Shown here: one piece after another, positions 32,741 through 57,297 of the stretch
Numbering within the stretch: the first letter of the stretch is position 1
Layout: each line of letters opens with the position of its first letter
Position numbers and translations under genes: made by a program
The notes under the pieces: model-generated
Database searches by the model: none
The model's input: only the letters and a program-made list of their open reading frames with translations
Told to the model about the DNA's origin: nothing
NCBI GenBank assembly: GCA_964565195.1
Contig: CAZMCQ010000002.1
Span: 82,161 to 146,160, forward strand
Direction: 5' to 3'
Origin: an uncultured Candidatus Saccharibacteria bacterium
GTDB taxonomy: Bacteria; Patescibacteriota; Doudnabacteria; UBA920; 2-01-FULL-46-14
DNA: 64,000 nucleotides

Positions 32741-32741
32741 T

Positions 32742-36224: not shown

Positions 36225-36228
36225 ATTT

Positions 36229-36894: not shown

Positions 36895-36895
36895 T

Positions 36896-38452
36896 ATGAA
36901 CTTTATTTCCAGTAATAAAAAATACGATTTTGAAGGTTTGTTTATTTTCGATATGGCGAACAATCACCAGGGCAGCGTGGAGCATGGCCTGCGAATCATC
37001 CGCGAGTTTGCGCCGGTGATCCGCGCGGCGGGCGTCCGCGCGGCCATGAAGTTTCAACTTCGCAACCTGGATACCTTTATTCATCCCGTGCATCATGAGA
37101 ACAAAGAAAATAAACATATCAGTCGCTTCCTCTCGACGCGGCTTTCCGATGCGGAGTTTCAAACTTTGACTGATGAATGTCGCAAACACGGCTTTATCCC
37201 GATGGCCACACCGTTCGATGAAGATTCAGTGGAACTTGCGAAACAATTGAACGTGGAGATTCTAAAAGTTGCGAGTTGTTCGGCGCGAGATTGGCCACTC
37301 CTAGAAAAAATTTCTGAAACCGGAAAACCAGTTGTCATCTCCACCGCTGGTCTGTCCGTAGACGACGTCGATAACCTCGTGAGCTTTTTCGATCACCGCG
37401 CGGTGCAATACGCGCTCATGCACTGCGTCGCCATTTATCCAACGCCGAGCCATCTCATGAATCTAGGGCGCATCAGTTTTATGAGGAAGCGCTACCCGCA
37501 TGTTCCTCTTGGTTTTTCTACGCATGAAGATCCGGACGATACCCACGTTATTGCTCTGGCTTATGCCAAAGGCGCGCGACTGTTTGAGCGCCATGTTGGC
37601 GTAGAAACGGAGCGCGTGAAGCTCAATGCCTACTCTTCTCGTCCCGAACAGATCAGAAAGTGGCTCAAAGCTTATGCGGAGGGCGTGGCCATGACTGGCG
37701 CAGCTGGGGGCCAGGAATATTCGCAGGACCAGAGCGAACAAGCATCACTGCGATCCCTGCAGCGCGGGGTGTTTGCGAAAAAAGATATTAAAAAGGACGA
37801 AGTGATCAAGCGTGATGATGTGTTTTTTGCCATGCCGCATCTAGCAGGACAGCTGCACAGCGGTAAATTTAAAACTGGTCTGGTTGCCGATCAGGATTAC
37901 CCGGCGCTCGTCCCGCTCTCGGCCGTGCTTGTCCCGGAGCGCCTCACCAAGAAGCAGATCATCTACCGCGTCCTGCACAAAGTCAAAGGCATGCTCCGCG
38001 AAGCCAATGTCGCGGTCAATCATGACTCGAGCGTGGAACTCTCGCACCACAAAGGCCTCGAAAATTTACAAGAGGTTGGCGCGGTTATCATTACCTGTAT
38101 CAATCGCGAATACTGCAAGAAGATCATTGTCATCCTGCCCGGGCAGATCCACCCGCAGCATTATCACGATAAGAAAGAAGAGTCCTTTCAGGTTTTGTCA
38201 GGGGAGCTGCATGTTGAAGTAAATGACAAACCGAAGATATTATTCCCCGGAGACATCCTGCTTATCCCGCGCGGCGTCTGGCACAGTTTCGCCGCGCCGG
38301 ACGGGGCGATTTTTGAAGAAGTCTCCACTATGCACTTTATGAATGATTCGGCCTATTCAGACAAAGAGATTGCCGCCATGAAACCCGAACAGCGTAAGAC
38401 ACAATTAATCAACTGGGGAGAACACCAATTCGATAACGTTGACGATCTATGA
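36896..38452 (+). CDS. Second N-acetylneuraminate synthase family protein (NeuB-like) fused to a C-terminal cupin domain
   Basis: N-terminal FIFDMANNHQGSVEHGLRIIREFA..MKFQ NeuB-like domain. C-terminal about 110 aa with cupin motifs (HPQHYHDKKEESFQVLSGELHV...GDILLIPRGVWHSF). Confidence 0.7.
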   Translation: MNFISSNKKYDFEGLFIFDMANNHQGSVEHGLRIIREFAPVIRAAGVRAAMKFQLRNLDTFIHPVHHENKENKHISRFLSTRLSDAEFQTLTDECRKHGFIPMATPFDEDSVELAKQLNVEILKVASCSARDWPLLEKISETGKPVVISTAGLSVDDVDNLVSFFDHRAVQYALMHCVAIYPTPSHLMNLGRISFMRKRYPHVPLGFSTHEDPDDTHVIALAYAKGARLFERHVGVETERVKLNAYSSRPEQIRKWLKAYAEGVAMTGAAGGQEYSQDQSEQASLRSLQRGVFAKKDIKKDEVIKRDDVFFAMPHLAGQLHSGKFKTGLVADQDYPALVPLSAVLVPERLTKKQIIYRVLHKVKGMLREANVAVNHDSSVELSHHKGLENLQEVGAVIITCINREYCKKIIVILPGQIHPQHYHDKKEESFQVLSGELHVEVNDKPKILFPGDILLIPRGVWHSFAAPDGAIFEEVSTMHFMNDSAYSDKEIAAMKPEQRKTQLINWGEHQFDNVDDL

Positions 38453-42320: not shown

Positions 42321-43381
42321 AAAAAGCGTTGATTACCGGTATCAACGGACAGGACGGCTCATACCTCGCGGAGCTTTTGCTCGCCCGCGGCTATGAGGTC
42401 CACGGCATTGTGCGGCGCGCCTCGACTTTTAACCGCTGGCGTATTGATCATCTTCACCGGCACCTTTTCCAGCGGCATCCCAATTTTCACCTCGAGTATG
42501 GGGATCTCACTGACTCGTCCAATCTGCTCCGCATTATGAAAAAGGTGGAGCCGGACGAGATTTATAATCTCGGCGCGCAGTCCCATGTGCAGGTCTCCTT
42601 TGAGACCCCGGAATACACGGCCAATGTTGATGCGCTCGGCACGCTCCGCCTCATTGAGGCGATGCGCATCTTGGGCCTGGAAAAAAAGACGAAATTTTAC
42701 CAGGCCTCGACGAGTGAGATTTATGGCAATACCCCGATTGTGCCGCAAAATGAGGAGACGCCGTTTCTGCCGCGCAATCCCTATGGCGTGGCTAAACTTT
42801 ATGGCTACTGGATCATCCGTACGTACCGCGAGGCGTATGGCATGTTTTTGGTCAACGGTGTTTTGTTTAATCATGAATCTCCGCGGCGCGGCGAAAATTT
42901 TGTCAGCAAAAAGATCACCCAGAGTTTGGCGCGCGTGAAACTGGGACTCCAGGATAAACTCGTTTTGGGCAACCTCGATGCGAAGCGTGACTGGGGGTAT
43001 GCCAAGGAATATGTCGAGGCCATGTGGCTGATGTTGCAGCAGAACAAGCCGCAGGATCTTGTCATTGCCACGGGCGAGGCGCACACCGTGCGAGAATTCG
43101 TGGAGGAGACCGCCAAAGTTTTGGAAATTCCCCTTAAGTGGGAGGGCGCGGGACGCGAGGAATGCGGTATTGATGAGAAAACCGGGCAAGTGATCGTGGC
43201 GCTGGATGCCTTTTTTCTGCGTCCGACAGAAATAAATATTCTCCAAGGCGACGCGCGCCGCGCAAAAAAAATGCTCGGCTGGGAACCGAAGGTGAAATTC
43301 AAAGAACTCGTCCGCCTCATGGCCACGTATGATCTCGAACGTTTCAAGAAAGGTGACGATAAAATCTTCATCGATGAATGA
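42317..43381 (+). CDS. gmd: GDP-mannose 4,6-dehydratase
   Basis: [36 protein letters not shown] and the internal [11 protein letters not shown] catalytic motif. Classic Gmd. Confidence 0.9.
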
Positions 43382-45632
43382 GGTTTTAGTTATCGTCCCG
43401 ACTTATAAGGAACGGGATAATATCGAAAAACTGGTCAATACGTTATTCTCCCTAGGAAAGGGCCTGGACGTTTTGATCGTGGATGATGGCAGCGATGGAA
43501 CGGACGAACTGATCCGTGAGATGCAGCGCGGGAATTCGCGCCTGTACCTTATTAAAAGGGAAGGCAAGGGCGGCCGCGGGAGCGCGGTGAATGAAGGGCT
43601 GCAATGGGGTTTGAAAAAGAACTATGATTATCTTGTGGAAATGGATGCGGATATTTCCCATGATCCCGAAGAGCTTCCTAAGCTTTTGGAAAGGGCGGCG
43701 CCTGATACCGTGGTGATCGGCTCGCGGTACGCGCGGGGCAGCCAGATCATTAGCTGGCCTTTGAAACGCCGCGTGTTCAGCAAACTCGCCAATGTCTACG
43801 CCAGCCTGGTTTTGGGACTTGGCATTCATGATTATACCAACGGCTTCCGGGTCTATCCGCGCGCTTTGATTGCGCGAATGGATTTTGAAAAGACCAGGTC
43901 GCGCGGATTTATCGCGCTTTCCGAGATTGCTTACGAACTGGCGGGACTTGGCGCAAAGTTTGTCGAAGTGCCGATCCGGTTTGTGAACCGCAAGCGCGGG
44001 GCCTCCAGCTTCTCGTTGAAAGAAATCAAAGAATCATTTTTATCTGTACTCAAAATAAAATTCAGCGTTTTGGAAATCGTTGCTTTGGGTTTGTTGGCTT
44101 TAAGTTTTTTCATCGGGCTGACCCATGGTTTTCCGCTCACGCGCGTCATCGGCGACGAGGCGCCCAATGTCGGCGGCGTCCTGCGGGCGCTGGAGGCCAA
44201 AACATTGCTGCCGGCCGTGGGCGACGTGCCGTATGCAACGGTCACGTATCTTTTGAGCTATTTCTTCATTGTCGTTTATCTTCTCCTGGCTTTCCCTTTG
44301 TTTGGTTTCAATATGGCGGCTTTAAAGCTGCATTTTCTCGAAAACCCGCATGAACTTTATTTTGTCGTGCGGCTAGGAAGTGCGCTACTGGCCATTGCCA
44401 CGATCGTCTTGCTCGAAAGGATGGCGAGGAAGAGCGGTGCGGCGCGCGGCGAGCGGTTAAGCATCATCCTGCTCGTGATGACCAACCTGCTTATCGCCTC
44501 GCATTTCCGCACCACCAAGGTCTGGGTGCTCTCCACTTTTTTGGTGCTGCTTTCCATTTATTATTTGTATCGCGCGCAAAAGGCGTCGGCGCCGCAAAGC
44601 AGAAGAGCGGCAATCGTTCGGGCGATTTTTTTTGCCTGTCTCTCCCTGGCCAACTTTCCTCTTAACCTTTATAGTGTGGCGGCGGTTTTGCTGTTGGTGT
44701 TTGTGTTTTTCCGCAAAGAAGAGGGCTTTTATCAAACCGTTTTTTGGGGATTGTTTTGGGGCGGTTTGGCCATCGGGGCGGTGTCGGCCCTGAATTGGCA
44801 AAACATTTTGGATCAGGCGCAAACCATGCTCGTTGAGGCCGGCGCCGGCTCGCAGTTTTCGCTCGTGCCTAAAATCCTGCTCAATAATTTGCAGCGCATT
44901 CTGTTGCTCTTTCCGCTGCTGCTCATTCCGGTGTTGTTTGTCCGGCGGATCCGCGACCAAAAACTGTTCACAATCGCGCTGGTCTGTCTGTTTCTGTATT
45001 TGGGCGCGATCAGCTTCACCGCGACCTGGATAAGCGGCACAGCCATTTTCTTGCGCTACCTCATTCCTTTTGGTTTATTTCTGGGTTTGCTGCTTATGAG
45101 CCTGGAGTTTCGTCCCAGGTTTGTTTTGCCAGTGCTGGCGGGATTGTCAGTGGTGTATTATCTGTTTTTGGTAGTTTATTTAAGTCGGCCCACAACTTAC
45201 AATCTCGTCAATGATTGGACGTATAAAAATTTAAATTCCGAACAAACGGTCATCATCAGCGACGCGCAATGGCTCGAGCTGCCGCTGAACAAAAAGTCGG
45301 CGCAGTATTTGCAGAACCGCTATTGCGGTACGCTTTGTCGCGAGACTATTCGCGGTGATCTCAAAGCCGAGTTCAAGCCGCTGGTTTTTGATGCGCGGCG
45401 GAGCGAAATGGAGGTTTATAAAAATTTGCTGAAAAATCCGGCGGGAATGGAATTTTATCTTTATACCGACACAGAGCGGCCGGAATTTTCCGACCGCCTG
45501 GTCGTGGCCGTGGGCCAGCTTTCTACCAAGGAGTATTTCGGCGTGGACCACCGCCTCGGGACATATTTCGATCCGCGCTATTTTACCGCCAAAAACTTCG
45601 GCGAGCGGATCTACGTCTATCGTTTTCAATGA
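43374..45632 (+). CDS. GT2 glycosyltransferase (Dpm1-like polyprenol-phosphate sugar synthase domain) fused to a large C-terminal polytopic membrane domain
   Basis: N-terminal [37 protein letters not shown]2 motifs. About 500 aa of hydrophobic helices follow. ATG 43374 overlaps the gmd stop. Confidence 0.7.
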
Positions 45633-47012
45633 TTACCGGCCTTTGCCGCCGAGCATAATATTGACGGTCTTCAAAATAATCCCGAAATCGAGTGGCAGGG
45701 ACCGGTTTTTGATGTAGAAAAGATCATATTGCAGTTTTTTCAGGGCGTCTTTGGGCGAGTCGCCATATTGAAAGTTGATCTGCGCCCAACCCGTAAGGCC
45801 TGGTTTGATCAAGTGCCGCTCATTGTAAAAGGGGATGATTTTTTGGAGCTCGCGGACAAATTCGGGCCGTTCCGGGCGCGGGCCAACGAGCGACATCTCG
45901 CCTTTCAAAACATTTAGAAGCTGCGGGATCTCGTCAATGCGCGTCAGTCGCATAAAGTGACCAAAGCGCGTCACGCGCGGGTCTCCTGGCTTCGCCCACT
46001 GCGGTTCGCCCTCTTTTTCCGCGCCAACGACCATGCTGCGAAATTTAATCGCGCGAAACGGCCGGCCGAGCTCGCCAATGCGGGTTTGGGAAAAAAGAAT
46101 CGGGCCCGGACTGTCCAGGCGGATGAGCAGCGTGATGAGCGGGATGAAGGGCAAAGAAATGGCCAGGCCAAGCGTGGCAATGACTATGTCCAGGACGCGC
46201 TTCGTCGTCTGGTAGACGCTTTTTTCACTCTCCGCAAGATTTTCCAGAAACCAGATATGGCCGATGTTGGTGATTGGGATTTTGCCGGTGAGGCGCTCGT
46301 AGAAAGATGGCAGGTCGCGGATCTCCAGACGCAGCGAAAGACTCTCAAAAAGCTGGGCGACAAGATTCGAGTCAGTCCGCGGATCGAGCACGGTCAGCAC
46401 GGTGCTGATATTTTTTTCCCGGATAAGTTTTTTGAAATTGGGAATGTCCGCGTAAACCGCGACCCCGGGAAATTCCTGGCCGCCTTTGTAGCTCCCGTGG
46501 ACAATGGCCGCCACGCGGTAGCCGAGCTGGGGTTTGCGGATGATTTCCGCGATGAGCTCGTGCGCCTCGTCATTCATGCCGATGACGAGTACGCTGCGGG
46601 TTAAGCGGTCGCGAACGATAAAGCCATTGTACCAGTAGCGCCACAGGGAATAAAAAACCGTGAAGACGGCGAGGTAGATGAAAAAGACAAGCTGCGGCTT
46701 GATGTTGAAAAGCTTGTCCGTCAGAAAATAGAAATAAGCCGCGGCCAGCCCGTAGCTAACGAGAATCGTGCCGAGGATTTTGTTGTAAAAGGCGAAATCG
46801 TTTTTGCTGATGGCAATATCGTAAAGCCCATTGATATAGAAAACGACCAGCCAGAGCAGGAAGAGCAGGGAAAAAGGCAGAAGGTGAAGGCCCCATTCTT
46901 TGTCGTTGGGTAAGGACTGGAAACGGAGCAACAGCGTAGCATAGAGCGCGGCATACATCGCCAAAATATCCCCGCCCACGAGCAAAATTTTTTTAAAACG
47001 GCTTAAGAGCAT
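45633..47012 (-). CDS. Polyprenyl-phosphate sugar phosphotransferase (bacterial sugar transferase, WbaP/PssY-like initiating enzyme)
   Basis: C-terminal RLTRIDEIPQLLNVLKGEMSLVGPRPERPEF motif and N-terminal TM helices. Stop abuts the stop of the convergent upstream gene. Confidence 0.85.
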   Translation of the reverse strand: MLLSRFKKILLVGGDILAMYAALYATLLLRFQSLPNDKEWGLHLLPFSLLFLLWLVVFYINGLYDIAISKNDFAFYNKILGTILVSYGLAAAYFYFLTDKLFNIKPQLVFFIYLAVFTVFYSLWRYWYNGFIVRDRLTRSVLVIGMNDEAHELIAEIIRKPQLGYRVAAIVHGSYKGGQEFPGVAVYADIPNFKKLIREKNISTVLTVLDPRTDSNLVAQLFESLSLRLEIRDLPSFYERLTGKIPITNIGHIWFLENLAESEKSVYQTTKRVLDIVIATLGLAISLPFIPLITLLIRLDSPGPILFSQTRIGELGRPFRAIKFRSMVVGAEKEGEPQWAKPGDPRVTRFGHFMRLTRIDEIPQLLNVLKGEMSLVGPRPERPEFVRELQKIIPFYNERHLIKPGLTGWAQINFQYGDSPKDALKKLQYDLFYIKNRSLPLDFGIILKTVNIMLGGKGR

Positions 47013-47056
47013 CGCTTTCGCTTGATAAAGCCCAGTATAGCAGCTAAAATTGATTT

Positions 47057-49204
47057 ATGCCAGTCATCTACCGTCTTTTGAAGTGGAACCTGTACGCGTT
47101 GCTCATCCTGCCGCTTCTGGTGTGGGGCATTTTTTTATTTCCCTTTATCACTACAAAAGTTCTCTATTTCCGTCTCCTCGTGGAAGCGGCCTTGGTGTTG
47201 TACCTTCCGCTTGCCATCCGTTACCGGGAGCTACGCCCAAAATTCGATCTAATCACCAAAATGGTCTTTGCGTATTTTGCCGTTCTCATCGTGAGCGCGC
47301 TTTTTGGCGTGGACGTTTACCGGAGCTTTTGGGGCACGATTGAGCGCGGCGAGGGGCTCATCACCATTGCGCATTATGTCGCCTATTTTGTGATCCTCAC
47401 CGCGGTTTTTCGAACCAAAGAAGACTGGCATCGTTATTTACGCGCGGCCGTCATCTCGACGCTGCTCGTGGCGCTCTACGCCTTCGCGCAAATTTTGAAT
47501 CTGTCCTTCGTAATGAACGCAGCCGGTGTCCGGATTTCCGGCACGGTTGGCAATGCCTTGTTTTTCGCTGCCCTGATGATGTTCGGCATGTTTCTCTCCC
47601 TGTACCTGGTCGGCGCGAGCCGGACCGGGGAACGTTTTTTTCTTTACGGAGTTTTCGCCTTTGAGTTCTTCCTGCTGTACAAGTCGGCTTCGCGCGGCGC
47701 GATTTTGGCGACTGCCCTGGCCATATTTTTTTATTTGGTCCTTAAATTTTTTAGAAGTGGCGGCTGGCGCCTCAAAATTGCGACTGGCGCTCTCGCCCTG
47801 CTTCTTCTGCTCGGCGCGGGGCTGGTTTATTTTAGCCGCGAGCGCGCGTGGGTGAAGCAAAACAGCACGCTGCTTCGCTTTGCGTCCATTTCGACGCGCG
47901 ATGTGACGACCCAGTCGCGGCTTGACACTTGGCAGGCCTCCTGGAAAGGTTGGCAGGAGCGTTTTTTCCTCGGCTATGGTTATGAAAATTACAACATTGC
48001 CTTTAACAAATATTTTCCGGCGCGAATTTTCAAAAAGCCCGGCAGCCAGATCTGGTTCGACCGCGCGCATAATACCGTCTTTGACGTTGCCGTGGCGTCC
48101 GGGATTTTCGGCCTCGTCGCTTATCTTGGCATTTTTGCCGCGGCCAGCATTGTGCTTATCCGCCAACGCGGCCGAAGTCTAATTCTCCTCTTTGGCCTGG
48201 CCGCCTATTTTGTGCAGAACCTGTTTGTGTTCGACACGCACGCCACGCACCTGATGTTCTACCTCGTTCTCGCCCACATTGTGTTTCTCGGTCGCGTCGA
48301 GCAGGGTACGTCCGCGTTTGCGCGACGGCGGGTGTGGTGGCTCGCCGTACCAGTCGCGTTATTTTTTTTAGTCTTTGCGTATTTTGTCAACGTCCAGCCA
48401 CTTTTGGCGAACTACAATGCCGTTGCCGCGCTGAAAGGTCTGCGGGGCGGGGATGCAAACGCCGGTTTGGATTATTTTCGGCGCGCCTTGTCTTACGGCA
48501 CTTATATGGATGCGGAGATCCGCCAGCATTTTGCTGACGCAGTGCTGCAGACCCAGGCCAAGACGTTGTATGGGTTGATCGCCATGGAAATGCGGAAAAA
48601 CGTCCTCGCCGCCCCGCGGGATGTCAAAAACTACCTCTATCTTATGAACATTCTCAATCGACTGCCGAACGAAGCGAGCAGCTATCAGGAAATCCTGTCC
48701 TTGGCCGAGCGGGCCATCCGGCTTTCCCCAACCCGGCCGCAAATCTATTCCGAGCTTGGCCAGGCCATGTTTTTCCGAAAGGAGTTCAGCGCGGGACTAG
48801 AAAATTTCCGCAAGGCCATCGAACTTTCTCCGGAGCCGTATATTTCGCATTTTAACTATCTGCTGGCTGGTATCATGGCGGGCGAAGCAAAAATTATCGC
48901 TGAGGAAACGGCGATTATCGAAAGGCAGTATAAGCATAAATTTACCGGCGAGGAGTACGCGCAGATTGCGCGCGCCTATCAGACCGCTGGTGACAGGGAT
49001 GCGGCTTTGGCAAATTATCGCACCGCCATTGCAATTGAGCCGACGCGGGTGGAATTCCGCATCAATCTGGTTTCTTTCTTTGGCGAACAGTGCGACCTTA
49101 CGGCGGTCCGGGACGAAATCAATGAAATCATCCGTTTAAATCGCGCCTACCAAAACGACGCGGTTGCCTATTTGAGCCAGGTGGAAAAAAACTGCAAGAA
49201 ATGA
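47057..49204 (+). CDS. O-antigen ligase/Wzy_C-domain membrane protein with C-terminal TPR repeats (putative O-oligosaccharyltransferase or polymerase)
   Basis: Polytopic N-terminal half with a Wzy_C-like segment WFDRAHNTVFDVAVASGIFGLVAYL. C-terminal TPR-like helical repeats. Confidence 0.65.
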   Translation: MPVIYRLLKWNLYALLILPLLVWGIFLFPFITTKVLYFRLLVEAALVLYLPLAIRYRELRPKFDLITKMVFAYFAVLIVSALFGVDVYRSFWGTIERGEGLITIAHYVAYFVILTAVFRTKEDWHRYLRAAVISTLLVALYAFAQILNLSFVMNAAGVRISGTVGNALFFAALMMFGMFLSLYLVGASRTGERFFLYGVFAFEFFLLYKSASRGAILATALAIFFYLVLKFFRSGGWRLKIATGALALLLLLGAGLVYFSRERAWVKQNSTLLRFASISTRDVTTQSRLDTWQASWKGWQERFFLGYGYENYNIAFNKYFPARIFKKPGSQIWFDRAHNTVFDVAVASGIFGLVAYLGIFAAASIVLIRQRGRSLILLFGLAAYFVQNLFVFDTHATHLMFYLVLAHIVFLGRVEQGTSAFARRRVWWLAVPVALFFLVFAYFVNVQPLLANYNAVAALKGLRGGDANAGLDYFRRALSYGTYMDAEIRQHFADAVLQTQAKTLYGLIAMEMRKNVLAAPRDVKNYLYLMNILNRLPNEASSYQEILSLAERAIRLSPTRPQIYSELGQAMFFRKEFSAGLENFRKAIELSPEPYISHFNYLLAGIMAGEAKIIAEETAIIERQYKHKFTGEEYAQIARAYQTAGDRDAALANYRTAIAIEPTRVEFRINLVSFFGEQCDLTAVRDEINEIIRLNRAYQNDAVAYLSQVEKNCKK

Positions 49205-49240
49205 TACAATAAACACAAATTCGAAGCACGAAATCCTAAA

Positions 49241-49312
49241 TCCGAAACAAATTTAAATGTTCAAAATTCAAAATTCTAAACGTTTCGAATTTCGAAATTC
49301 GAATTTCGGATT
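49241..49312. repeat. AAATTC/TTCGAAA-type repeats including a perfect 20-nt palindrome TTCGAATTTCGAAATTCGAA, upstream of pilB
   Basis: Seen directly in the 117-bp pilB upstream region. Sequence-related to the heptamer repeat at 15635. Confidence 0.7.
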
Positions 49313-49321
49313 TTAACGCTT

Positions 49322-51067
49322 ATGGCACTCGCATCCACTGATTTAAAAAAAATTCTCGTCGGTCAGAGTGTCTTGAGCGAAGGCGATTTTGACAAACTCG
49401 AACGGGAAGCGCGCGACAAGAAACAAAGTCTGGCGAATTACCTGGTCTTCCGCAAGATTATTCCCGAGGAGCGTTTGGCGAAAATGGTCAGCGATTTTCT
49501 GTCCGTACCCATCGTTGATCTTTCCTCTCTCAAAATCCCGCAGGAAGTTTTGAAGATCATTCCCGAGCCGATCGCGCGGCGCCATCAGGTCGTCGCCTTC
49601 AACAAGAAGGGCAACGAGCTGGATCTCGCCATGACTGACCCCGAGGATTTGCAGACGCGCGAGTTTGTCAAAAAGAAAACCGGCTTTGTAATCGTGCCTT
49701 TTCTTGCGACCAAGACCGGCATGGATAACGCCCTAGCGCAATACCACTCGAGTTTAAAAGCCGAATTCGAAAAGATTCTGGAGGACAAAAAACAAGAGCA
49801 GCCAAAAAGCTCCACGGAGCCCGGAGCCGAGCTCAAAAAAATGGCGGAAGAGATTCCGGTCGTGCGGGTTGTGGATACGCTGCTTGAGTACGCAATTTTT
49901 GAAAACGCTTCGGACATCCACATCGAGCCGCAGGAGAAAGAGGTAACGGTGCGCTACCGCATTGATGGCATTCTTCATGACGTGATGACGCTGCCCAAAG
50001 TGATCCAGCCCGCGCTGGTCGCCCGGCTCAAAGTGCTTTCCAGCCTCAAGATTGACGAGCATCGCCTTCCCCAGGACGGCCGATTCAAATTGCAGACCGA
50101 ACAGTACAACATTTCCTTCCGCGTTTCGACCATTCCAGTTTTTGACGGGGAAAAAGTCGTGCTGCGGCTCCTTGACGAGGGCGCGCGGGCCCTTACCTTT
50201 GAGGAGCTCGGGTTTGCCCGGTCAGCGCTCGATATTATCAAACGCAACCTCACGCGCTCGCACGGCATGACGCTCATCACCGGCCCGACCGGCTCGGGAA
50301 AATCCACCACGCTTTATACCATTCTCACGAAGCTCAATGTGAAGGGCGTCAACATCAGCACGATTGAGGATCCGATCGAATACCGCATTCCCGGCGTGAA
50401 TCAGATGCAGGTCAACCCAAAAATCGGACTGACGTTTGCCGTGGGTCTGCGCGCGCTCCTGCGCCAGGACCCGAACATCATCATGATCGGCGAAATCCGC
50501 GACCTCGAAACCAGTGAGGAGGCCATCCACGCCGCGATGACCGGCCACATCGTGCTCTCCACGCTGCACACGAACAACGCGGCCGGCGCGATTCCGCGCC
50601 TCCTCGACATGGGCGTCGAGCCATACCTTATTGCCTCTACAGTGAATACCGTCGTCGGGCAGCGCCTGGTCCGCAAGGTTTGCCAGGATTGCAAAGTGGC
50701 GAAAAACCTTGACGGCGAGACGTTCGCCAGTCTCAAGCGCGACTTTGATCTGGACAATCTGATTGCCATCATGAAAAAGGAAGGCGTGCTCGAGCCGGCC
50801 GTTGCCTCCCTGGAACAAGTTGAGTTTTACGAAGGGCAGGGTTGTGAAAAATGCGGCCGGTCCGGCTTCCGTGGCCGGATGGGGATCTATGAGGTGCTCG
50901 ATATTACCGAGGCCGTTGCGAGATTAATCCTGGAACGCGGTACGACCAGCCAGATTGAGAATACGGCCGTGAAGAGTGGCATGGTCCTCATGTGGCAGGA
51001 CGGCTTTCTCAAAGCCCATTTGGGTTTTACCACAATCGCCGAGGTTCTCCGGGTTTCCAAAGAGTAA
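49322..51067 (+). CDS. pilB: Type IV pilus assembly ATPase PilB (GspE family)
   Basis: N-terminal GspII domain, Walker A GPTGSGKSTT, the tetracysteine-like CQDC..CEKCGRSG motif, Walker B and His box. Confidence 0.9.
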   Translation: MALASTDLKKILVGQSVLSEGDFDKLEREARDKKQSLANYLVFRKIIPEERLAKMVSDFLSVPIVDLSSLKIPQEVLKIIPEPIARRHQVVAFNKKGNELDLAMTDPEDLQTREFVKKKTGFVIVPFLATKTGMDNALAQYHSSLKAEFEKILEDKKQEQPKSSTEPGAELKKMAEEIPVVRVVDTLLEYAIFENASDIHIEPQEKEVTVRYRIDGILHDVMTLPKVIQPALVARLKVLSSLKIDEHRLPQDGRFKLQTEQYNISFRVSTIPVFDGEKVVLRLLDEGARALTFEELGFARSALDIIKRNLTRSHGMTLITGPTGSGKSTTLYTILTKLNVKGVNISTIEDPIEYRIPGVNQMQVNPKIGLTFAVGLRALLRQDPNIIMIGEIRDLETSEEAIHAAMTGHIVLSTLHTNNAAGAIPRLLDMGVEPYLIASTVNTVVGQRLVRKVCQDCKVAKNLDGETFASLKRDFDLDNLIAIMKKEGVLEPAVASLEQVEFYEGQGCEKCGRSGFRGRMGIYEVLDITEAVARLILERGTTSQIENTAVKSGMVLMWQDGFLKAHLGFTTIAEVLRVSKE

Positions 51068-51078
51068 TTGGATTTATT

Positions 51079-52293
51079 ATGCCAGAGTTTAATTATACTG
51101 CGCGAAATAAAAACGGCGAAATCGTCAGCGAAACCATGACCGCCAGCTCTCGTGAGGCCTTGGCTGCGAGTTTGCGCGCGCGCGGGCTTCTGCCGACCGC
51201 GATTCGGGAAAAGCGACGGCCGTTTTGGAATTTCAAAAACCTCGGTACCACGATCCACCACGTGTCGCTGCTCGAGAAGCTCACATTTATAAAAAATCTT
51301 TCGGTAACCATCCGGGCCGGACTGCCGGTTTCCCGCGCGCTCAAAGTTCTCGCCAGGCAAATGGACAATGCGTATTTTCAGCAGGTGATTTCCGAGATCG
51401 CGCAGTCCGTGGAGAGCGGCAAGACACTTTCGGAAAGCATGGCGCGCTACGATCGGATCTTCTCGCCGATCACGGTAAGCATGGTGCGGGTCGGCGAGTC
51501 AAGCGGGGAATTGGACAACATTCTTGAATATCTGGGTGCCCAGATCGCGCGCGATTATAACCTCATCCGCCGGACGCGTGGCGCCATGATCTATCCGGCC
51601 GTGGTGCTGGTGGCTTTGGCCGGCATCGGGTACCTCATGTTCACTTTTGTCCTGCCGCGGCTTACGGAATCATTTAAGGAGTTCAATACCGAACTGCCGG
51701 CCCTGACGCGCGCCATTATCCGGACGGTGGATATTTTTTCCCATTATTCGGCCTTTATACTCTTTGGTTTCATCGCGCTCATCATCGGCTTTGTCATCTG
51801 GCACCGGACGCCCTCCGGCCGTCGCGTGGTGCACAAGCTTTTCCTCACCGCACCGATCGTCAAAGGCATCGTGAAAAAACTGAACCTGGCGCGGTTCACG
51901 ATTATCTTCGGCGGGCTCCTCAAAAGCGGGATGCCGATCGTGGAGGCCCTCAAAATCACCAGCGAAACCATGACCAATGTTTATTACCAGGACGCGATTG
52001 CGGACGCTTCGGAGAAAGTCCGCATCGGCGTGGACCTGGTCGCGGCCATTGACAAATACCCGCACCTGTTCACCCCGATGGTGAGCCAGATGATTGCTGT
52101 GGGTGAGGAGTCCGGAACCATGGAAAAAGTCCTGGCCGAAGTCGCGGCCTTTTATGAAACCGAGGTGGACGAGACGGTGAGCAATCTTTCGTCGATCATC
52201 GAGCCGGTGCTGATCATGGTTATTGGCGCGGTCGTCGGCGTGCTGGCAATCGGCCTGATCCTGCCGATTTATAATTTAAGCCAAAGCTTTTAG
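51079..52293 (+). CDS. pilC: Type IV pilus platform protein PilC (GspF family)
   Basis: Two T2SS-F domain repeats and 3 predicted TM segments. 404 aa. Confidence 0.85.
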   Translation: MPEFNYTARNKNGEIVSETMTASSREALAASLRARGLLPTAIREKRRPFWNFKNLGTTIHHVSLLEKLTFIKNLSVTIRAGLPVSRALKVLARQMDNAYFQQVISEIAQSVESGKTLSESMARYDRIFSPITVSMVRVGESSGELDNILEYLGAQIARDYNLIRRTRGAMIYPAVVLVALAGIGYLMFTFVLPRLTESFKEFNTELPALTRAIIRTVDIFSHYSAFILFGFIALIIGFVIWHRTPSGRRVVHKLFLTAPIVKGIVKKLNLARFTIIFGGLLKSGMPIVEALKITSETMTNVYYQDAIADASEKVRIGVDLVAAIDKYPHLFTPMVSQMIAVGEESGTMEKVLAEVAAFYETEVDETVSNLSSIIEPVLIMVIGAVVGVLAIGLILPIYNLSQSF

Positions 52294-52309
52294 TACTACG
52301 AAATACGAA

Positions 52310-52711
52310 ATGGTACGAAAGTACGAAAAAAATTCAGGGTTTTCACTCATCGAGGTGATTATAGCGTTGTTTGTGATTTCGGCCGCGCTTTTGCTTTATG
52401 CCGGATCATATGCCACAGTGCGTCTCACGCGGGCCACACGCGACGAGACGCAGGCTTATCGGATCGCGGCGCGGCAGCTCGAACTGCTGCGCTCCACAGC
52501 GTTTAGCGCCCTGCCGGCCTCGGGGCAGATCTTTGATACCAATTTGGCAGCTCTACCTTCCGGCAGCGGCAGCTACACGGTCGCGGATTATCCCGATACA
52601 AGCAGCCGTCTGAAGGTCGCCTCGAGCACAGTGAGCTGGACTCGCGATGGGACCGGGCGGTCAGTGAATCTGCAAACGTTGATTGGCGAGACCGGTTTCA
52701 ATCCACCATGA
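52310..52711 (+). CDS. Prepilin-type N-terminal cleavage/methylation domain protein (pilin or minor pilin)
   Basis: Class III signal KNSG/FSLIEVIIALFVISAALLLYAG with a conserved Glu at +5. Confidence 0.7.
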   Translation: MVRKYEKNSGFSLIEVIIALFVISAALLLYAGSYATVRLTRATRDETQAYRIAARQLELLRSTAFSALPASGQIFDTNLAALPSGSGSYTVADYPDTSSRLKVASSTVSWTRDGTGRSVNLQTLIGETGFNPP

Positions 52712-53274
52712 GAAACGCCGCGTTTACGATCGTCGAAATCGTAGTTGTAATTGGCCTATTTGCTTTGCTGATGCTGTTCGCGAGCGGAATTTTTTTGAGC
52801 CACAACAGTCTTTATTACGCGCAGCGAGCCGAAATCAATGCTGTTGGTACGGCTCGCTCGGCTTTGGATGACATCACGGACGAAATCCGCGAAGCTGCCG
52901 CGGTCGCAGCCTCCACCGATTACCAGGGCGCTACTTACACCACCGACGCCGATACGCTCGTGCTCTCCTTGCCGGCCGTTGATGCCGCGAATGTGGTGCT
53001 CGGCAATGTCTACGACTATGTGGTCTACTATATTGACGCGGCGAACCCAAAGCAATTGCGCAAAATCGCGGCTCCAAACGCTGCCTCGTTTCGCCGCGCC
53101 GAGGATCGGAAACTGCTCTCCGAGCACCTGTTCGCCTTGAGTTTCACCTACAATGATCCTGACCCAACCAATGCCAGCCGAATTATCATTAATCTGACCG
53201 CGGAAGATACCGCGCGTCTCGCGAGCCGAAAAATCACCCTCGTTGAAGACGTGTATCTTCGCAACCGCGACTAA
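52708..53274 (+). CDS. Prepilin-type N-terminal domain protein (minor pilin)
   Basis: N-terminal RNAAFTIVEIVVVIGLFALLMLF hydrophobic segment with Glu at +5. Atypical Ala at -1. Confidence 0.55.
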   Translation: MRNAAFTIVEIVVVIGLFALLMLFASGIFLSHNSLYYAQRAEINAVGTARSALDDITDEIREAAAVAASTDYQGATYTTDADTLVLSLPAVDAANVVLGNVYDYVVYYIDAANPKQLRKIAAPNAASFRRAEDRKLLSEHLFALSFTYNDPDPTNASRIIINLTAEDTARLASRKITLVEDVYLRNRD

Positions 53275-53275
53275 T

Positions 53276-54625
53276 ATGCGCGCCCAAAACGGACAAATTC
53301 TCATCATCGCTCTCATCTTTATGGTAATTATTCTGGTGCTCTCCGGCATCCTGGTAAGCTTGACCGTTCTGCACACGGCCGGCGAGCGTCAGGGCAAAGC
53401 CCGTGAGCAGGCGATGAATCTGGCCGAAGCCGGGGTGGAGCGGGCGCTTTATCAGCTCAACTATGGCGCGGGCTCTGGTTATGTCGGAGAAACTGATTTC
53501 AGCTTCGGCGGCGGAGTGACAGACATCGCGGTCGTGGCGATCTCCGCAAGTTTGAAACGAGTGACTGCCACTGCCTATGTGCCGGACAAAGGTGTCCCTC
53601 GCGCGAAGCGGAGCGTTCAGGCGGATCTGGACACCGGCGGGCCGATCATCGTTTTTAGTTTTGCGGTGCAGGTTGGCGAGGGGGGACTCGAGATGGCCAA
53701 AGACGCGCAGGTCGTCGGCAATATTTATTCCAATGGCCCGATTAAAGGCACCGAGGACGGCGCGCGCGCCACCGGCGACGCTATTTCCGCCGGCACCGTG
53801 GGCAGGATCGAAAAGCTGCAGGTGGACGGCACGGCGACCGCGCACACAATTAAAAATTCCGAGATTGGCGGGAGCGCATACGGTTATGTCTTGGATGACA
53901 CGACGGTCGGCGGGAGTGTTTTGGCCTATTCGCTCAAGAACTGCACGATTGGCGGCAATGCCGATTATACGACCAAAACCAACTGCACTATCGGCGGGGC
54001 GCAGACTACGCCGTACGCCGGCTATCCCGACCAGCCCGCGCAGGATTTTCCCATCACCGACCAACAGATCACGGACTGGAAAAATGCCGCCGAGGCCGGG
54101 GGCGTCATTTCTGGAAATTACACTTTGAATAACGGCCAGAGCGCTTCGCTCGGTCCAAAGAAGATCACCGGTGATTTGAAGATGAAAGAAAATTCCACCT
54201 TGACCCTCACGGGTCCGATTTGGGTTGAGGGAAAAATTGATATTGACAAAGATGGAACGATAGCATTGGATACGGCCTATGGCTCATCGAGTGAAGTTTT
54301 AATCACTGATGAACAGGCCGATCTCTCCAAAGAAGTTAATTTCCAGCGCGCGGGTGCTGACAGCTACGTTCTGCTGATTAGCCTCTCGGTTGCAGGTGAT
54401 GCCATCAAGATCGCGAAAAATTCCGATGCACTTGTGGCCTATGCTCCAAACGGCACAGTGACTATCCAGAAGTCCGTAACTTTGCGGGAAGTGACTGCGA
54501 ATAAACTGAAATTGGAAAAAGACGCTCAAGTGATTTATGAGTCAGGACTTGCGAGTGTGGAATTTACCTCTGGTCCTTCTGGCGGCTGGCGATTAAAGCG
54601 CGGCACCAGGGTTGAAAAAAAATGA
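53276..54625 (+). CDS. PilX-like minor pilin/tip protein with a large beta-helix-like extracellular domain
   Basis: N-terminal QNGQILIIALIFMVIILVLSGILV PilX_N-like segment. C-terminal repetitive GG/IGG-containing strands (NSEIGGSAYGYVLDDTTVGGSVLAYSLKNCTIGGNADY) suggesting a parallel beta-helix. Confidence 0.55.
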   Translation: MRAQNGQILIIALIFMVIILVLSGILVSLTVLHTAGERQGKAREQAMNLAEAGVERALYQLNYGAGSGYVGETDFSFGGGVTDIAVVAISASLKRVTATAYVPDKGVPRAKRSVQADLDTGGPIIVFSFAVQVGEGGLEMAKDAQVVGNIYSNGPIKGTEDGARATGDAISAGTVGRIEKLQVDGTATAHTIKNSEIGGSAYGYVLDDTTVGGSVLAYSLKNCTIGGNADYTTKTNCTIGGAQTTPYAGYPDQPAQDFPITDQQITDWKNAAEAGGVISGNYTLNNGQSASLGPKKITGDLKMKENSTLTLTGPIWVEGKIDIDKDGTIALDTAYGSSSEVLITDEQADLSKEVNFQRAGADSYVLLISLSVAGDAIKIAKNSDALVAYAPNGTVTIQKSVTLREVTANKLKLEKDAQVIYESGLASVEFTSGPSGGWRLKRGTRVEKK

Positions 54626-54640
54626 GATTTGTGCTATAAT
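54612..54640 (+). promoter_or_regulatory. Sigma70-like promoter TTGAAA-17-TATAAT for the pilMNO operon, embedded in the 3' end of the PilX-like gene
   Basis: Consensus-like -35 and -10 hexamers with a 17-bp spacer. About 100 nt upstream of the pilM ATG. Confidence 0.55.
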
Positions 54641-54741
54641 AATAAGTGTGTTGGAAGTCCAGCATAGAAACAAAAATTAAGAGGCTCCGCCTCTTCGGCG
54701 GATGGGCCGAGGAGGCCCAAAAAACCAAAATAAAATCTACA

Positions 54742-55833
54742 ATGTTTGGCCTGAAAAAAAGGCGGCGCGAGCCGATTGGTTTGGATATCAGCGACGTCTC
54801 CCTGAAACTCGCGATGCTTTCTGGTACCCGAGGAAATATCGCGCTCTCGGCTTACGCGCAAGCAAAAATCGGCCCAGATATTCTCGCCCAGGACAATATC
54901 AAAAATCCGGGGGAGCTTTCGGGGTTGATCAAGGCGGCCCTGCTCCGGCCGCAATTTGGCCAGATCAATTCCCGACAGGTGATTGCCTCTATCCCGGAGA
55001 CAAAATCTTTTGTGCGCGTTATCCAGGTGCCGGTGATAACCGCGGAGGAGGCGGCCGAGGCGGTTCCCTTTGAAGCCGAAGCCTACATCCCAATGCCGAT
55101 CAGCCAGGTTTATTTGGATTGGGTAATCTTGTCGTCGCTCGAGCCGGGCACGCCCGGCGGCCCTGAGGCAGGGAAGATGACGGTGTTGATTACGGCCTCA
55201 CCCAGGGATTATGTGGATACTTATGTGGCGGTATTGAAGGGGGCCGGGCTCGAGCCGGTTGCGCTCGAGGTCGAATCACAAGCGACGGCGCGCGCACTCG
55301 TGCCGCTTCAAGAGTTTAGCGAAGCCGTGCTCATCGCCGACCTGGGCGGCACACGAACGAGTCTGACGATTGTTGATCGCGGAGTGCTGCAGTTTACTTC
55401 GTCAGTGCCGGTCGGAGGCAATTCGCTAACCGAGAGTATTGGCCGCGCGCTCTCGCTGGATGCGGATAAAGCCGAAGAACTGAAACGTAAAGTGGGCCTT
55501 GATGAGGCACAGGATCAGCGCGGCGCGGAAGTGAAAAATGCGCTCTTGCCTCTCTTGAATAATTTGGTTGAGGAAATAAAAAACACCATGCGGTTTTATG
55601 AGGAGCATACCGGGCCGCAGGCCAAAATTTCACGTCTCCTGCTCGCCGGCGGCGCGAGCAAACTCCGGAACTTGTCCGAATTTTTGTCGGCGAGCCTTTC
55701 CGGCCTTAAAGTGGAACTGGGCAACCCCTGGCTCAATCTTGTCCGTGGTCAGGGAACTTCCGCCGCAGCGAGTCAGGACTCATTAAATTTTGCCACGGCC
55801 ATTGGCCTGGCCTTGCGGGGGTTTGAAGAATGA
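54742..55833 (+). CDS. pilM: Type IV pilus assembly protein PilM (actin-like ATPase fold)
   Basis: N-terminal IGLDISDVSLKLAML, an internal DLGGTRTSLTIV motif and position upstream of pilN/pilO. Confidence 0.75.
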   Translation: MFGLKKRRREPIGLDISDVSLKLAMLSGTRGNIALSAYAQAKIGPDILAQDNIKNPGELSGLIKAALLRPQFGQINSRQVIASIPETKSFVRVIQVPVITAEEAAEAVPFEAEAYIPMPISQVYLDWVILSSLEPGTPGGPEAGKMTVLITASPRDYVDTYVAVLKGAGLEPVALEVESQATARALVPLQEFSEAVLIADLGGTRTSLTIVDRGVLQFTSSVPVGGNSLTESIGRALSLDADKAEELKRKVGLDEAQDQRGAEVKNALLPLLNNLVEEIKNTMRFYEEHTGPQAKISRLLLAGGASKLRNLSEFLSASLSGLKVELGNPWLNLVRGQGTSAAASQDSLNFATAIGLALRGFEE

Positions 55834-56376
55834 ATGATTAAAAAATACATAAATTTACTGCCGCCTGAGGAGCTGAAGTTTAAGGCGCAAAGAGAATTCG
55901 CGCGGCAGCTTTGGTTGTTCGGCGTGGTGTTTCTGGCGAGTTTGGTTGCGTTAGCGGCCGTATTGTTTGGTGCGGAAGTTTATTTGCAAAGGCAGCTCCG
56001 CATGAAAAGCGAAGCTATTGCGGTGCGTTCGGCAGAACTCACAAGTCTCGAAGAATCGCAGCTTCAAGACGAGCTTGGGACCATCAACCGCAATTTGGAG
56101 AATTTTCAGATCCTGCAGAGAGAGCAGATGAAGTGGTCCGGGGCCTTCGAGGAGTTGGCGCAACTCTTGCCGCGCGGCTTGACGCTCGACAGTCTGATTT
56201 TTACCCGTGAGGAGAAAAAGATTGAAATCGCCGGCCGTGCGGCGACCCGTGAAGAGGTGCTGGCCCTCCGCGAAAATCTGCTTGCCTCGCAGCACTTCAA
56301 GGGCGTAAATTTTCCGCTGCAAAATCTGGAACGCGCTCGCGACGTACCTTGGCGATATCGGTTTTACCTCAAATGA
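55834..56376 (+). CDS. pilN: PilN-like pilus assembly protein
   Basis: N-terminal INLLPPEE motif followed by a single TM helix, then a periplasmic coiled coil. 180 aa. Confidence 0.6.
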   Translation: MIKKYINLLPPEELKFKAQREFARQLWLFGVVFLASLVALAAVLFGAEVYLQRQLRMKSEAIAVRSAELTSLEESQLQDELGTINRNLENFQILQREQMKWSGAFEELAQLLPRGLTLDSLIFTREEKKIEIAGRAATREEVLALRENLLASQHFKGVNFPLQNLERARDVPWRYRFYLK

Positions 56377-56377
56377 T

Positions 56378-57001
56378 ATGCAGAAAGTTTTAGCCGCAAA
56401 AAACCCTGGCATTTTTTTGACCTTGAGTGTGATGCTGCTTCTTGCTGGCGCGCTCCTTGTCTTTGTGATCTCGCCTTACTTGCGAAAAATCGGCGCGAGC
56501 CAAGCCGCCATCCGCTCGGCCGTGGCCGAGCTTTCTGCGCTCGAGCAGAAGATTGCAGGTTATAAAACCGCCATCGCGGAATTGGCGAAAATCGAGACCA
56601 ACAAAGAAGAGATTGTCGGCCTTTTTCCGAAACGCGAGAATATGGTCTCGCTCGTTTCCGGAATCGAGAGCGCGGTCGCCCGGGCGGGCGCGTTCTCGGA
56701 GCTAAAGATTATTGATAAAAAAGAGGATCCGCTCGCCGCGGATGTTGACCGGGCAGCCAGGCCCGTTGCCTCGAGCCTAAAAGGCGTGGAGGAAGTGCCC
56801 TATAAGCTTACGCTTTCAGGGAATTATCGGAGTTTTACGGATTTTTTGCTGTATTTCGAACACCAGCCCTTTATTTCAGAACTCAAAAAGATCGGCATCA
56901 CCGCGATCACGGTTCAGGATGAGACGAGCAAGGTGCTTCGGAATACGGGGCTGGCAACCGGCATTTTTGAAGGCGTATTTTTTATCGCGCGCGCGCCATG
57001 A
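56378..57001 (+). CDS. pilO: PilO-like pilus assembly protein
   Basis: Single N-terminal TM helix then a coiled coil. Gene order pilM-N-O. Confidence 0.55.
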   Translation: MQKVLAAKNPGIFLTLSVMLLLAGALLVFVISPYLRKIGASQAAIRSAVAELSALEQKIAGYKTAIAELAKIETNKEEIVGLFPKRENMVSLVSGIESAVARAGAFSELKIIDKKEDPLAADVDRAARPVASSLKGVEEVPYKLTLSGNYRSFTDFLLYFEHQPFISELKKIGITAITVQDETSKVLRNTGLATGIFEGVFFIARAP

Positions 57002-57297
57002 AAAAACTGCAGCTGCCAAAACTCAAAATCAGGATCAAGCCGGGCTGGATTCTCCTTGCCGTCTTGTTAGTGGCCTTGGCGCTTGAAGCCGCCGCGCTCT
57101 ATAAATATCTCTATCTGAATCCGCGCCAGGCGCCCGCGCCGGTGATGACGCAGCAAGAAGCGGAAAGCCCGCGCGTCAATCTACCGGTGTATCAAAACGC
57201 GGTGCAGTGGCTCGACGAGAACGCAAAATTTACTGTCCCGAATTATCAGCTGGAAAAAGAAACCACGGGCCGCGACAACCCGTTTACGGAATATTAA
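56998..57297 (+). CDS. Small membrane-anchored protein (possible PilP-like component)
   Basis: 99 aa, one N-terminal TM helix. ATGA overlap with pilO. Confidence 0.35.
   Translation: MKKLQLPKLKIRIKPGWILLAVLLVALALEAAALYKYLYLNPRQAPAPVMTQQEAESPRVNLPVYQNAVQWLDENAKFTVPNYQLEKETTGRDNPFTEY

Follow-up and report, generated by a model that had tools for sequence, protein, structure and literature searches.

A Wzy_C/TPR membrane protein and its divergent phosphotransferase as a candidate envelope-glycosylation module of the Candidate Phyla Radiation

Previously, WsfB of Paenibacillus alvei and WsaB of Geobacillus stearothermophilus have been predicted to act as S-layer O-oligosaccharyltransferases of monoderm bacteria, and both carry a Wzy_C domain (PMC2943079). 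In WsfB a tetratricopeptide repeat (TPR) motif stands at the C-terminus, whereas WsaB has its TPR partner, WsaA, as a distinct protein encoded next to it; the P. alvei locus further includes a homologue of asparagine synthase and an initiating enzyme that resembles WbaP (PMC2943079). The present study concerns a 64-kb stretch of contig CAZMCQ010000002.1 (the window), where a membrane protein with a Wzy_C domain and C-terminal TPR repeats is encoded divergently from an initiating phosphotransferase and ahead of a type IV pilus operon. Its relatives belong to the Candidate Phyla Radiation (CPR, or Patescibacteria). Among CPR bacteria, Nanosynbacter lyticus TM7x has two described pili, T4P-1 and T4P-2, with small major pilins and elaborate minor pilins whose glycosylation is a prediction only; that experimental study regards glycosylation in these bacteria as unexplored and pilin glycosylation as merely predicted (PMC11623550). 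Our literature search returned no description of the CPR Wzy_C/TPR family or of its pairing with the phosphotransferase, and nothing that joined CPR or Patescibacteria with O-antigen ligase.

We propose, at about even odds, that the phosphotransferase and the Wzy_C/TPR protein constitute a core envelope-glycosylation module of the CPR, in which the latter would be a WsfB-like O-oligosaccharyltransferase for surface proteins generally.

The Wzy_C/TPR enzyme and its gene neighbourhood

The pair and its parts lie in the window as follows.

45633-47012, minus strand: initiating polyprenyl-phosphate hexose-1-phosphate transferase of the large WbaP/WcaJ type (Pfam, NCBIfam)
47013-47056, intergenic: 44-bp divergent region between the phosphotransferase and Wzy_C/TPR genes, with promoter-like hexamers for both
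47057-48412, plus strand: membrane domain of the Wzy_C/TPR protein, residues 1-452, with a 12-helix WaaL/PglL-like core, an outward loop (260-339) and a 13th helix
48455-49192, plus strand: C-terminal TPR superhelix, residues 467-712, predicted to be extracytoplasmic (AlphaFold2 model, TPR matches, topology count)

The Wzy_C/TPR protein (715 residues; 47057-49204, plus strand, divergent from the phosphotransferase) scored 67.8 bits against the Pfam Wzy_C domain over residues 201-357, where the cut-off is 31.7, and its C-terminal part matched Pfam TPR repeats. In an alignment of 37 membrane-domain sequences the invariant residues included R213, R288 and D335-R336-A337-H338. Because a full-length profile retrieved only TPR proteins from the PDB, the PDB comparison used a profile trimmed to the membrane domain. 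This profile gave exactly two matches, namely WaaL (7TPG, E 6.5e-13) and a chain named 'Oligosaccharyltransferase' (9RMK, E 2.4e-10), and the region of R213, R288 and H338 aligned to the TRGA, R and HxHN motifs of both, with the catalytic His of the Wzy_C/TPR protein falling on His349 of the 9RMK chain. His349 is the essential His of Neisseria meningitidis PglL, and from this register we take 9RMK to be PglL. By hhalign, the same three residues aligned to R215, R288 and H338 of E. coli WaaL at a probability of only 81%. No relationship was found to the two Wzy proteins compared, the E. coli K-12 polymerases WbbH and WzyE (hhalign probability 0.1%), and neither PglL_A (PF15864) nor Wzy_C_2 (PF11846) matched at E <= 0.01 in the Pfam scan of the protein.

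The AlphaFold2 model, built from 28 homologues (pLDDT 88.5, pTM 0.85), gave a target-normalised Foldseek TM-score of 0.66 over 432 columns against WaaL 7TPG. In this model residues 430-452 form a 13th helix, and the TPR superhelix after it comprises about 250 residues. When the helices were counted from an inside N-terminus, the short inside loops were all Lys/Arg-rich, as in the ARRR preceding helix 13, and both loop 260-339 and the TPR domain are predicted to lie outside the cell. The 13th helix would bring the TPR superhelix out beside the catalytic loop. Residues of the TPR domain, such as those of the LSPTRPQIY motif, were invariant across CPR classes, and this invariance suggests a specific, conserved binding function.

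The phosphotransferase, a large polytopic protein, matched Bac_transf (215 bits) together with CoA_binding_3 in Pfam (E 5e-64), and in NCBIfam it scored 398 bits against TIGR03025 (EPS_sugtrans, exopolysaccharide biosynthesis), which exceeds the cut-off. Promoter-like sites at the divergent junction lie at 47022-47050 on the plus strand (TTGATA-17-TAAAAT) and at 47063-47034 on the minus strand. These results bear out much of an earlier note on this DNA, which had described a giant sugar locus ending in an initiating phosphotransferase and an O-antigen-ligase-family TPR protein next to pilus genes. The open reading frame (ORF) listing and the Pfam and NCBIfam scans found every gene it named where it had placed it; the sugar locus spans more than 46 kb (507-47012) and is closed by the minus-strand phosphotransferase at 45633-47012. 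Judged by its sequence, the Wzy_C/TPR protein is an enzyme of the WaaL/PglL superfamily (Wzy_C, PF04932), as that note had held, with the predicted catalytic residues R213, R288 and H338 intact.

Hundreds of full-length relatives, of about 720-810 residues, were found. Those with names came nearly all from Candidatus Doudnabacteria, Kuenenbacteria, Buchananbacteria, Falkowbacteria and Parcubacteria, all members of the CPR. By these relatives, the window comes from a Doudnabacteria-like CPR bacterium. Gene context was compared across 83 loci, comprising 80 from species-representative genomes, two obtained by exact look-up and the window itself. Window proteins were mapped onto the loci, ORFs were called and clustered de novo, and the commonest clusters were annotated. 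In 42 of the 83 loci the gene immediately upstream of Wzy_C/TPR was that of the divergent phosphotransferase, which lay within the flank in about 50, and every major branch of the family tree shows this pairing.

Downstream, the neighbours mostly encode secreted or surface structures. The commonest was a secreted subtilase (Peptidase_S8 plus FG-GAP, with a signal peptide), present in 33 of the 83 loci at a median gap of about 10 bp (usually 0-20 bp, with several 4-bp overlaps) and followed in order by GtrA, an epimerase, GT2, DUF2304 and GT2 genes. The subtilase is coupled to the Wzy_C/TPR gene much more tightly than is pilB, the first gene of the pilus operon. For the enzyme, this subtilase may be either a substrate or a partner in processing. 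A 588-residue secreted protein was encoded directly downstream in three loci, and the same gene block, with MurB next and SecA farther on, lay within the flank in five. Many genomes have a second Wzy_C/TPR paralogue that lacks the phosphotransferase (about 13 loci). It is preceded by genes for an extracytoplasmic-function sigma factor, a DUF5667 protein, a 1202-residue secreted protein that had no Pfam match and a 242-residue transmembrane (TM)-TPR protein; in two loci (L041, L051) two Wzy_C/TPR genes stand in tandem. Homologues of the subtilase and of the 1202-residue, 588-residue and TM-TPR proteins were absent from the window. Examples of the two arrangements are given below.

Locus L082, 12263-14452: subtilase (equivalent position in L010, L012, L043, L073 and L079)
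Locus L076, 3838-12127: paralogue arrangement (similar in L041, L044, L049, L051, L059 and L070)

The upstream sugar locus and the proposed pathway

The sugar locus that would supply the glycan contains the following features.

507-45632, mostly plus strand: surface-glycan biosynthesis locus (Pfam, NCBIfam)
25630-27411, plus strand: fused ABC exporter of MsbA/PglK/HepA type (Pfam ABC_membrane and ABC_tran)
43329-45632, plus strand: 767-residue protein with a GT2 polyprenyl-phosphate-sugar-synthase-like domain and a GT-C-like membrane domain of about nine helices (Pfam, NCBIfam)

The locus may continue past the start of the window. By Pfam and NCBIfam, its nucleotide-sugar pathways comprise two nonulosonic-acid sets, a heptose-like set and a GDP-6-deoxyhexose/aminosugar set. 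The two NeuB/CMP-transferase/DegT sets for nonulosonic acids span 29189-38452, with one NeuB fused to a cupin domain, and they suggest that the glycan of the window has two distinct nonulosonic acids. Neighbouring genes at 32706-34247 and 34208-35527 gave sub-threshold NCBIfam matches to the BFO_1060 glycosyltransferase family; BFO is the locus-tag prefix of a strain of Tannerella forsythia, whose S-layer O-glycan bears a nonulosonic acid. A set of GHMP kinase, SIS and nucleotidyltransferase-HAD genes is present, which we take to be similar to the GDP-heptose pathway, and a GDP-mannose dehydratase gene adjoins a DegT aminotransferase gene. UDP-glucose dehydrogenase, several epimerases/dehydratases, an asparagine-synthase homologue, a carbamoyltransferase and several methyltransferases are also encoded. 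The glycosyltransferases recognised by Pfam were at least eight of GT4, at least three of GT2 and one PMT_2 enzyme of GT-C type.

The multi-helix ORFs of the window are limited to PMT_2, a 581-residue protein, the ABC exporter, the GT2 fusion, the phosphotransferase, the Wzy_C/TPR protein and PilC. Among them the survey found no MOP/Wzx-like ORF with 12 TM helices, and the ABC exporter is the sole flippase candidate of the window. Its NCBIfam scores were 328 bits for HepA_fam, 304 for MsbA and 233 for PglK, all under the respective cut-offs, and its homologues adjoin the phosphotransferase gene in three other loci (L029, L033, L073). No matches to Wzx (Polysacc_synt/MOP), Wzz/PCP or LytR-CpsA-Psr were found among the scanned window ORFs in Pfam. 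In the 767-residue protein, Glycos_transf_2 covers residues 21-181, nine hydrophobic segments fall within residues 247-616 and the C-terminal part is soluble; the NCBIfam matches (AglJ, ArnC, PpgS, PgfS) were weak, and locus L007 has an ortholog. This fusion is possibly a donor synthase and a GT-C transferase in a single polypeptide. The 581-residue protein (22560-24305), which gave no Pfam or NCBIfam match, combines a soluble C-terminal domain with at least six hydrophobic segments over the first two thirds of its length, and it may be a GT-C-type enzyme.

In the pathway that we propose, the phosphotransferase, working on the cytoplasmic side of the membrane, would start the glycan on polyprenyl phosphate, and the cytoplasmic GT4 and GT2 enzymes of the locus would lengthen it. 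The MsbA/PglK-like exporter would probably flip the product, and the Wzy_C/TPR enzyme would then move it en bloc onto the acceptor at the outer face by chemistry of the WaaL/PglL type, with Arg213 and Arg288 presumably holding the pyrophosphate and His338 placed in the active site. The TPR domain would dock the acceptor, which would itself be a protein: S-layer proteins, secreted enzymes and possibly pilins are the candidates. Outside the cell, the GT-C-type enzymes (PMT_2, the 581-residue protein and the GT2 fusion) could add sugars from polyprenyl-phosphate monosaccharides. The lack of a MOP flippase, Wzz and LytR-CpsA-Psr in the window, together with the presence of an MsbA/PglK-like exporter, favours such a pathway, in which the glycan is initiated, completed, flipped and transferred en bloc. 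Furthermore, because Wzx and Wzz are missing, similarity to the E. coli Wzy proteins is lacking and the TPR domain is predicted to face outward, a transfer role for the enzyme, including transfer onto protein, is reasonable. By analogy with the WsfB architecture, and considering the outward TPR domain and the secreted-protein genes nearby, a protein is most likely to be the acceptor.

Several points weigh against this proposal. Our literature searches yielded neither an acceptor nor glycoprotein data for any CPR bacterium. The Pfam Wzy_C family also covers some polymerases and lipid-directed ligases, and since similarity to WaaL and to 9RMK is about equal in both sequence and fold, these comparisons do not tell whether the acceptor is a protein or else a lipid or polymer. 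Machines for polysaccharide export likewise use TPR domains as scaffolds, and the strong conservation of the TPR domain across CPR classes could equally fit a non-protein ligand. Besides, a looser recurrent link between the enzyme and pili is possible, as pilus genes lie within about 2-5 kb of it, in other arrangements, in three further lineages (L027; L066 and L071).

A serious alternative, which we judge possible though on the unlikely side, is that the enzyme is a polymerase or ligase for a non-protein polymer, such as a capsule, a secondary cell-wall polymer or a lipoglycan, with the TPR domain as a scaffold. Besides the Wzy_C domain and the structural likeness to the lipid-directed ligase WaaL, this explanation would account for the pairing with an initiating transferase of exopolysaccharide type, as shown by the TIGR03025 score; the GtrA, GT2 and DUF2304 genes downstream in other lineages suggest a cell-wall polymer, and the presence of two paralogues in a genome is reminiscent of bacteria with several polysaccharide systems. 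However, the window offers neither Wzx, Wzz/PCP nor LytR-CpsA-Psr matches, the enzyme has no similarity to WbbH or WzyE, no lipid A-core pathway was seen in the window, and its pilus operon has no PilQ secretin. CPR bacteria are not known to have an outer membrane or lipopolysaccharide. To our knowledge, the enzymes described with a fused extracytoplasmic TPR domain are protein-directed transferases (WsfB, with TMTC and OGT by analogy), and neither Wzy nor WaaL is among them.

The type IV pilus operon and its possible link to the enzyme

Type IV pili are central to the attachment of CPR bacteria to their hosts. The operon that follows the Wzy_C/TPR gene is laid out as follows.

49205-49321, intergenic: AT-rich spacer of 117 bp between the Wzy_C/TPR gene and pilB, with three consecutive heptanucleotide arrays
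49322-51067, plus strand: PilB assembly ATPase (Pfam T2SSE, 425 bits, and MshEN)
51079-52293, plus strand: PilC platform protein (Pfam T2SSF in two stretches; the ORF opens at 50992, likely start 51079)
52310-52711, plus strand: PilV-like minor pilin, 133 residues, leader KNSG|FSLIEV (Pfam N_methyl, motif scan, ortholog alignment)
52708-53274, plus strand: PilW-like minor pilin, 188 residues, short leader NAA|FTIVEI (Pfam, motif scan, ortholog alignment)
53276-54625, plus strand: PilX-like large minor pilin or adhesin, 460 residues (the ORF opens at 53243, probable start 53276; weak DUF5649 match)
54742-55833, plus strand: PilM (Pfam PilM_2, 164 bits; the ORF opens at 54646, probable start 54742)
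55834-56376, plus strand: PilN (Pfam PilN)
56378-57001, plus strand: PilO, a weak assignment (Pfam PilO E 2.7e-4, just under the cut-off; syntenic in related loci)
56998-57297, plus strand: 99-residue single-pass membrane protein at the end of the operon (one TM segment, no Pfam match)

With PilB, PilC, PilM/N/O and prepilin-motif proteins, this is the machinery of a type IV pilus of monoderm type. Orthologs of the 99-residue protein follow pilO in seven other loci (L002, L004-L007, L078, L081), and tRNA-Arg, tRNA-Lys and holA lie downstream of the operon. The motif scan of the whole window found only two prepilin motifs, at 52337 and 52720, both in the minor-pilin-like genes. The PilX-like protein, conserved in seven to eight related loci, begins with QNG|QILIIAL, lacks Glu5 and has one N-terminal TM segment and a repeat-rich C-terminal domain. 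PDB sequence searches with the pilin-like proteins returned no match. Owing to their size order, the third protein without Glu5 and the conserved N-terminal region of the 133-residue family, the 133-, 188- and 460-residue trio probably represents a minor-pilin set of the PilV/PilW/PilX type and not a major pilin. No major pilin, PilD, PilT or PilQ was found in the 64-kb window; that the PilQ secretin is missing agrees with a CPR cell that has no outer membrane.

Heptanucleotide repeats occur both in the sugar locus and ahead of the pilus operon. A perfect array, (AAATTCG)x4.4 at 15635-15665, lies inside a GT4 ORF, where one unit more or less would change the reading frame, and a second, (TTTGGAA)x3.6 at 7585-7609, lies within another GT4 ORF. 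The three arrays of the pilB spacer extend over 49229-49313, and the unit of the last is the reverse complement of that at 15635. Across related CPR loci (1.38 Mb), arrays of period 7 were by far the most frequent tandem repeats (42 of 93; TRF score >= 40, at least three copies), often situated within GT4 genes or at the 5' end of a gene for a surface protein. Such arrays were located by TRF in other loci as listed.

L004, 15132-15165: heptanucleotide array
L008, 12186-12220: heptanucleotide array
L058, 6153-6183: heptanucleotide array
L020, 310-360: heptanucleotide array
L052, 8364-8393: heptanucleotide array
L072, 11082-11113: heptanucleotide array

These arrays could act in slipped-strand phase variation or as a repeated operator. 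A bolder form of our proposal, which we consider rather unlikely, combines these elements: a conserved and so far undescribed protein O-glycosylation system of the CPR, with a transferase of WaaL/PglL type, an outward TPR docking domain and an initiator of its own, to which the type IV pilus operon would be coupled in the Doudnabacteria lineage. The pili would then bear a variable glycan that contains nonulosonic acid, and the heptanucleotide repeats might make this coat phase-variable.

The earlier note had gone further and suggested that the sugar locus may be a toolbox for a pilin or S-layer glycan, with the pilus operon directly abutting the glycan genes. The gene order is right, and yet the 117-bp spacer intervenes, and pilB has a promoter-like site of its own, which overlaps the end of the Wzy_C/TPR gene. 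Likewise, its pilins do include two proteins with prepilin motifs and a PilX-like protein, but these form the minor-pilin-type trio, with no major pilin in the window. Ser/Thr-rich pilin C-termini, which that note had proposed to look for, were absent from the two aligned pilins (133 and 188 residues) and their orthologs. These contain 13-23% Ser+Thr overall and end in ...NPP, ...NRP, ...RNK or ...NRD, never in Ser/Thr. Known O-oligosaccharyltransferases do not require Ser/Thr-rich tails, and two aligned minor-like pilins do not clearly settle whether the pilins lack plausible sites. Thus, of the pilin-or-S-layer claim, the transfer role stands as reasonable, while the pilus adjacency holds in about 11 of the 83 loci, the hallmark of TfpO is missing and PglL-specific domains are absent; the evidence agrees no less well with a glycan for S-layer or other surface proteins than with one for pilins.

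The strict version, in which the Wzy_C/TPR enzyme belongs functionally to the pilus operon and is dedicated to O-glycosylating pilins like PglL or TfpO, appears distinctly unlikely to us. In its favour, pilB stands directly downstream in about 11 of the 83 loci (the window, L001, L002, L004-L007, L026, L039, L078 and L081), an order kept even though the enzymes at these loci share only 33-57% identity. The gaps to pilB are about 0-200 bp overall and 0-25 bp in L004-L007, and the spacer of the window (49205-49321) has no terminator-like hairpin. Within the clade the junction of enzyme and pilB is steadier than that of enzyme and phosphotransferase, which is moved or lost in L003-L006; in L003 the phosphotransferase sits between the Wzy_C/TPR gene and pilB. 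The pilus genes near the enzyme in the three further lineages mentioned above, and the sharing of one heptamer unit by a GT4 gene and the region upstream of pilB, point the same way, and pilin glycosylation in the CPR has already been proposed from predictions only (PMC11623550).

Nevertheless, in the neighbour-joining tree the pilB-adjacent enzymes form one main clade and a nearby pair (L026, L039). Since they are confined to one or two neighbouring clades, pilB adjacency therefore reflects one or two historical events in a Doudnabacteria-like lineage, and holA downstream is likewise syntenic in that clade. Elsewhere in the CPR, the ortholog paired with the phosphotransferase precedes the subtilase at a much tighter spacing. 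The promoter-like site of pilB, the minor-like pilins without Ser/Thr-rich ends, the missing major pilin and the absence of PglL_A and Wzy_C_2 also argue against dedicated pilin glycosylation. Upstream of the phosphotransferase the glycan genes of that clade differ in every genome; the locus is hypervariable between conserved anchors, a pattern that by itself gives no indication of function. The position next to the pilus operon is a lineage-specific arrangement and no evidence of dedicated pilin glycosylation. Within the operon, the top promoter-like site of the region (54612-54640, TTGAAA-17-TATAAT with an upstream TG, 11 of 12 matches) precedes pilM, and pilMNO may have a promoter of their own.

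That the TPR protein is instead a pilus assembly factor of PilF/PilW/TadD type, as JGI names of some homologues imply ('Tfp pilus assembly protein PilF', 'Flp pilus assembly protein TadD'), is highly improbable, as most family members lie away from pilus genes and the operon of the window has no PilQ. PilF and PilW are lipoprotein partners of the PilQ secretin. The PilF/PilW reading of the TPR domain was rejected on its NCBIfam score against PilW (TIGR02521), 17.7 bits where the cut-off is 154.

Comparison with named systems

The conserved pair of an initiating transferase and a Wzy_C/TPR enzyme is a candidate for the final step of surface glycosylation in many CPR classes. If the acceptors are proteins, the pair would represent a general O-glycosylation system of the CPR and help in identifying S-layer and other surface proteins; if the product is a wall polymer instead, the pair still marks the core of a CPR envelope glycan pathway. 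The family offers a good experimental handle on CPR surface glycosylation, while the pilin-glycan claim rests mainly on a lineage-specific adjacency, which in the window is a lineage-level arrangement and not strong functional evidence.

The pilin-directed enzymes TfpO/PilO and TfpM share with the CPR enzyme the Wzy_C superfamily and proximity to pilus genes. They are proteins of about 460 residues without TPR repeats, encoded right after the major pilin gene, and they modify the C-terminal Ser/Thr of its product. In contrast, the CPR gene precedes pilB, and in the two aligned pilins the last residue is P, Q, K or D. The pilus operon itself resembles those of TM7x in its pilB, pilC, pilM, pilN and pilO genes, its PilV/W/X-like minor pilins and the lack of a secretin, although the window differs in having no major pilin, PilT or PilD.

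WaaL is the closest solved structure (7TPG) and shares the R/R/H triad, the 12-helix core and the large outward loop between helices 9 and 10. However, the CPR enzyme has an extra 13th helix and a TPR domain, and no lipid A-core acceptor is expected in the CPR. The PglL-type chain 9RMK resembles it in the profile match (E 2.4e-10 over 268 residues) and in the register of the catalytic His. PglL has a TPR-like C-terminal motif according to a review, whereas the CPR enzyme lacks PglL_A and Wzy_C_2, carries a canonical TPR superhelix of about 250 residues after its 13th helix and resides in a host that appears to be of monoderm type.

The likeness to WsfB is one of architecture and locus: the window matches it in a Wzy_C plus TPR enzyme, a WbaP-like initiator and an asparagine-synthase homologue. 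The context of the CPR paralogue, in which a TM-TPR protein gene precedes the Wzy_C/TPR gene, is similar to that of WsaA and WsaB, and the hosts of WsfB and WsaB have a monoderm-type envelope, as the CPR appear to have. The differences are that the CPR gene forms a divergent pair with that of the initiating enzyme and often shares an operon with a subtilase, and that a Wzm/Wzt exporter is described in G. stearothermophilus where the CPR locus has an ABC exporter of MsbA/PglK type. Tests for a PglL-type, TfpO-type, Wzy or PilF/PilW protein failed, and in its architecture and locus content the Wzy_C/TPR enzyme appears to match the WsfB type.

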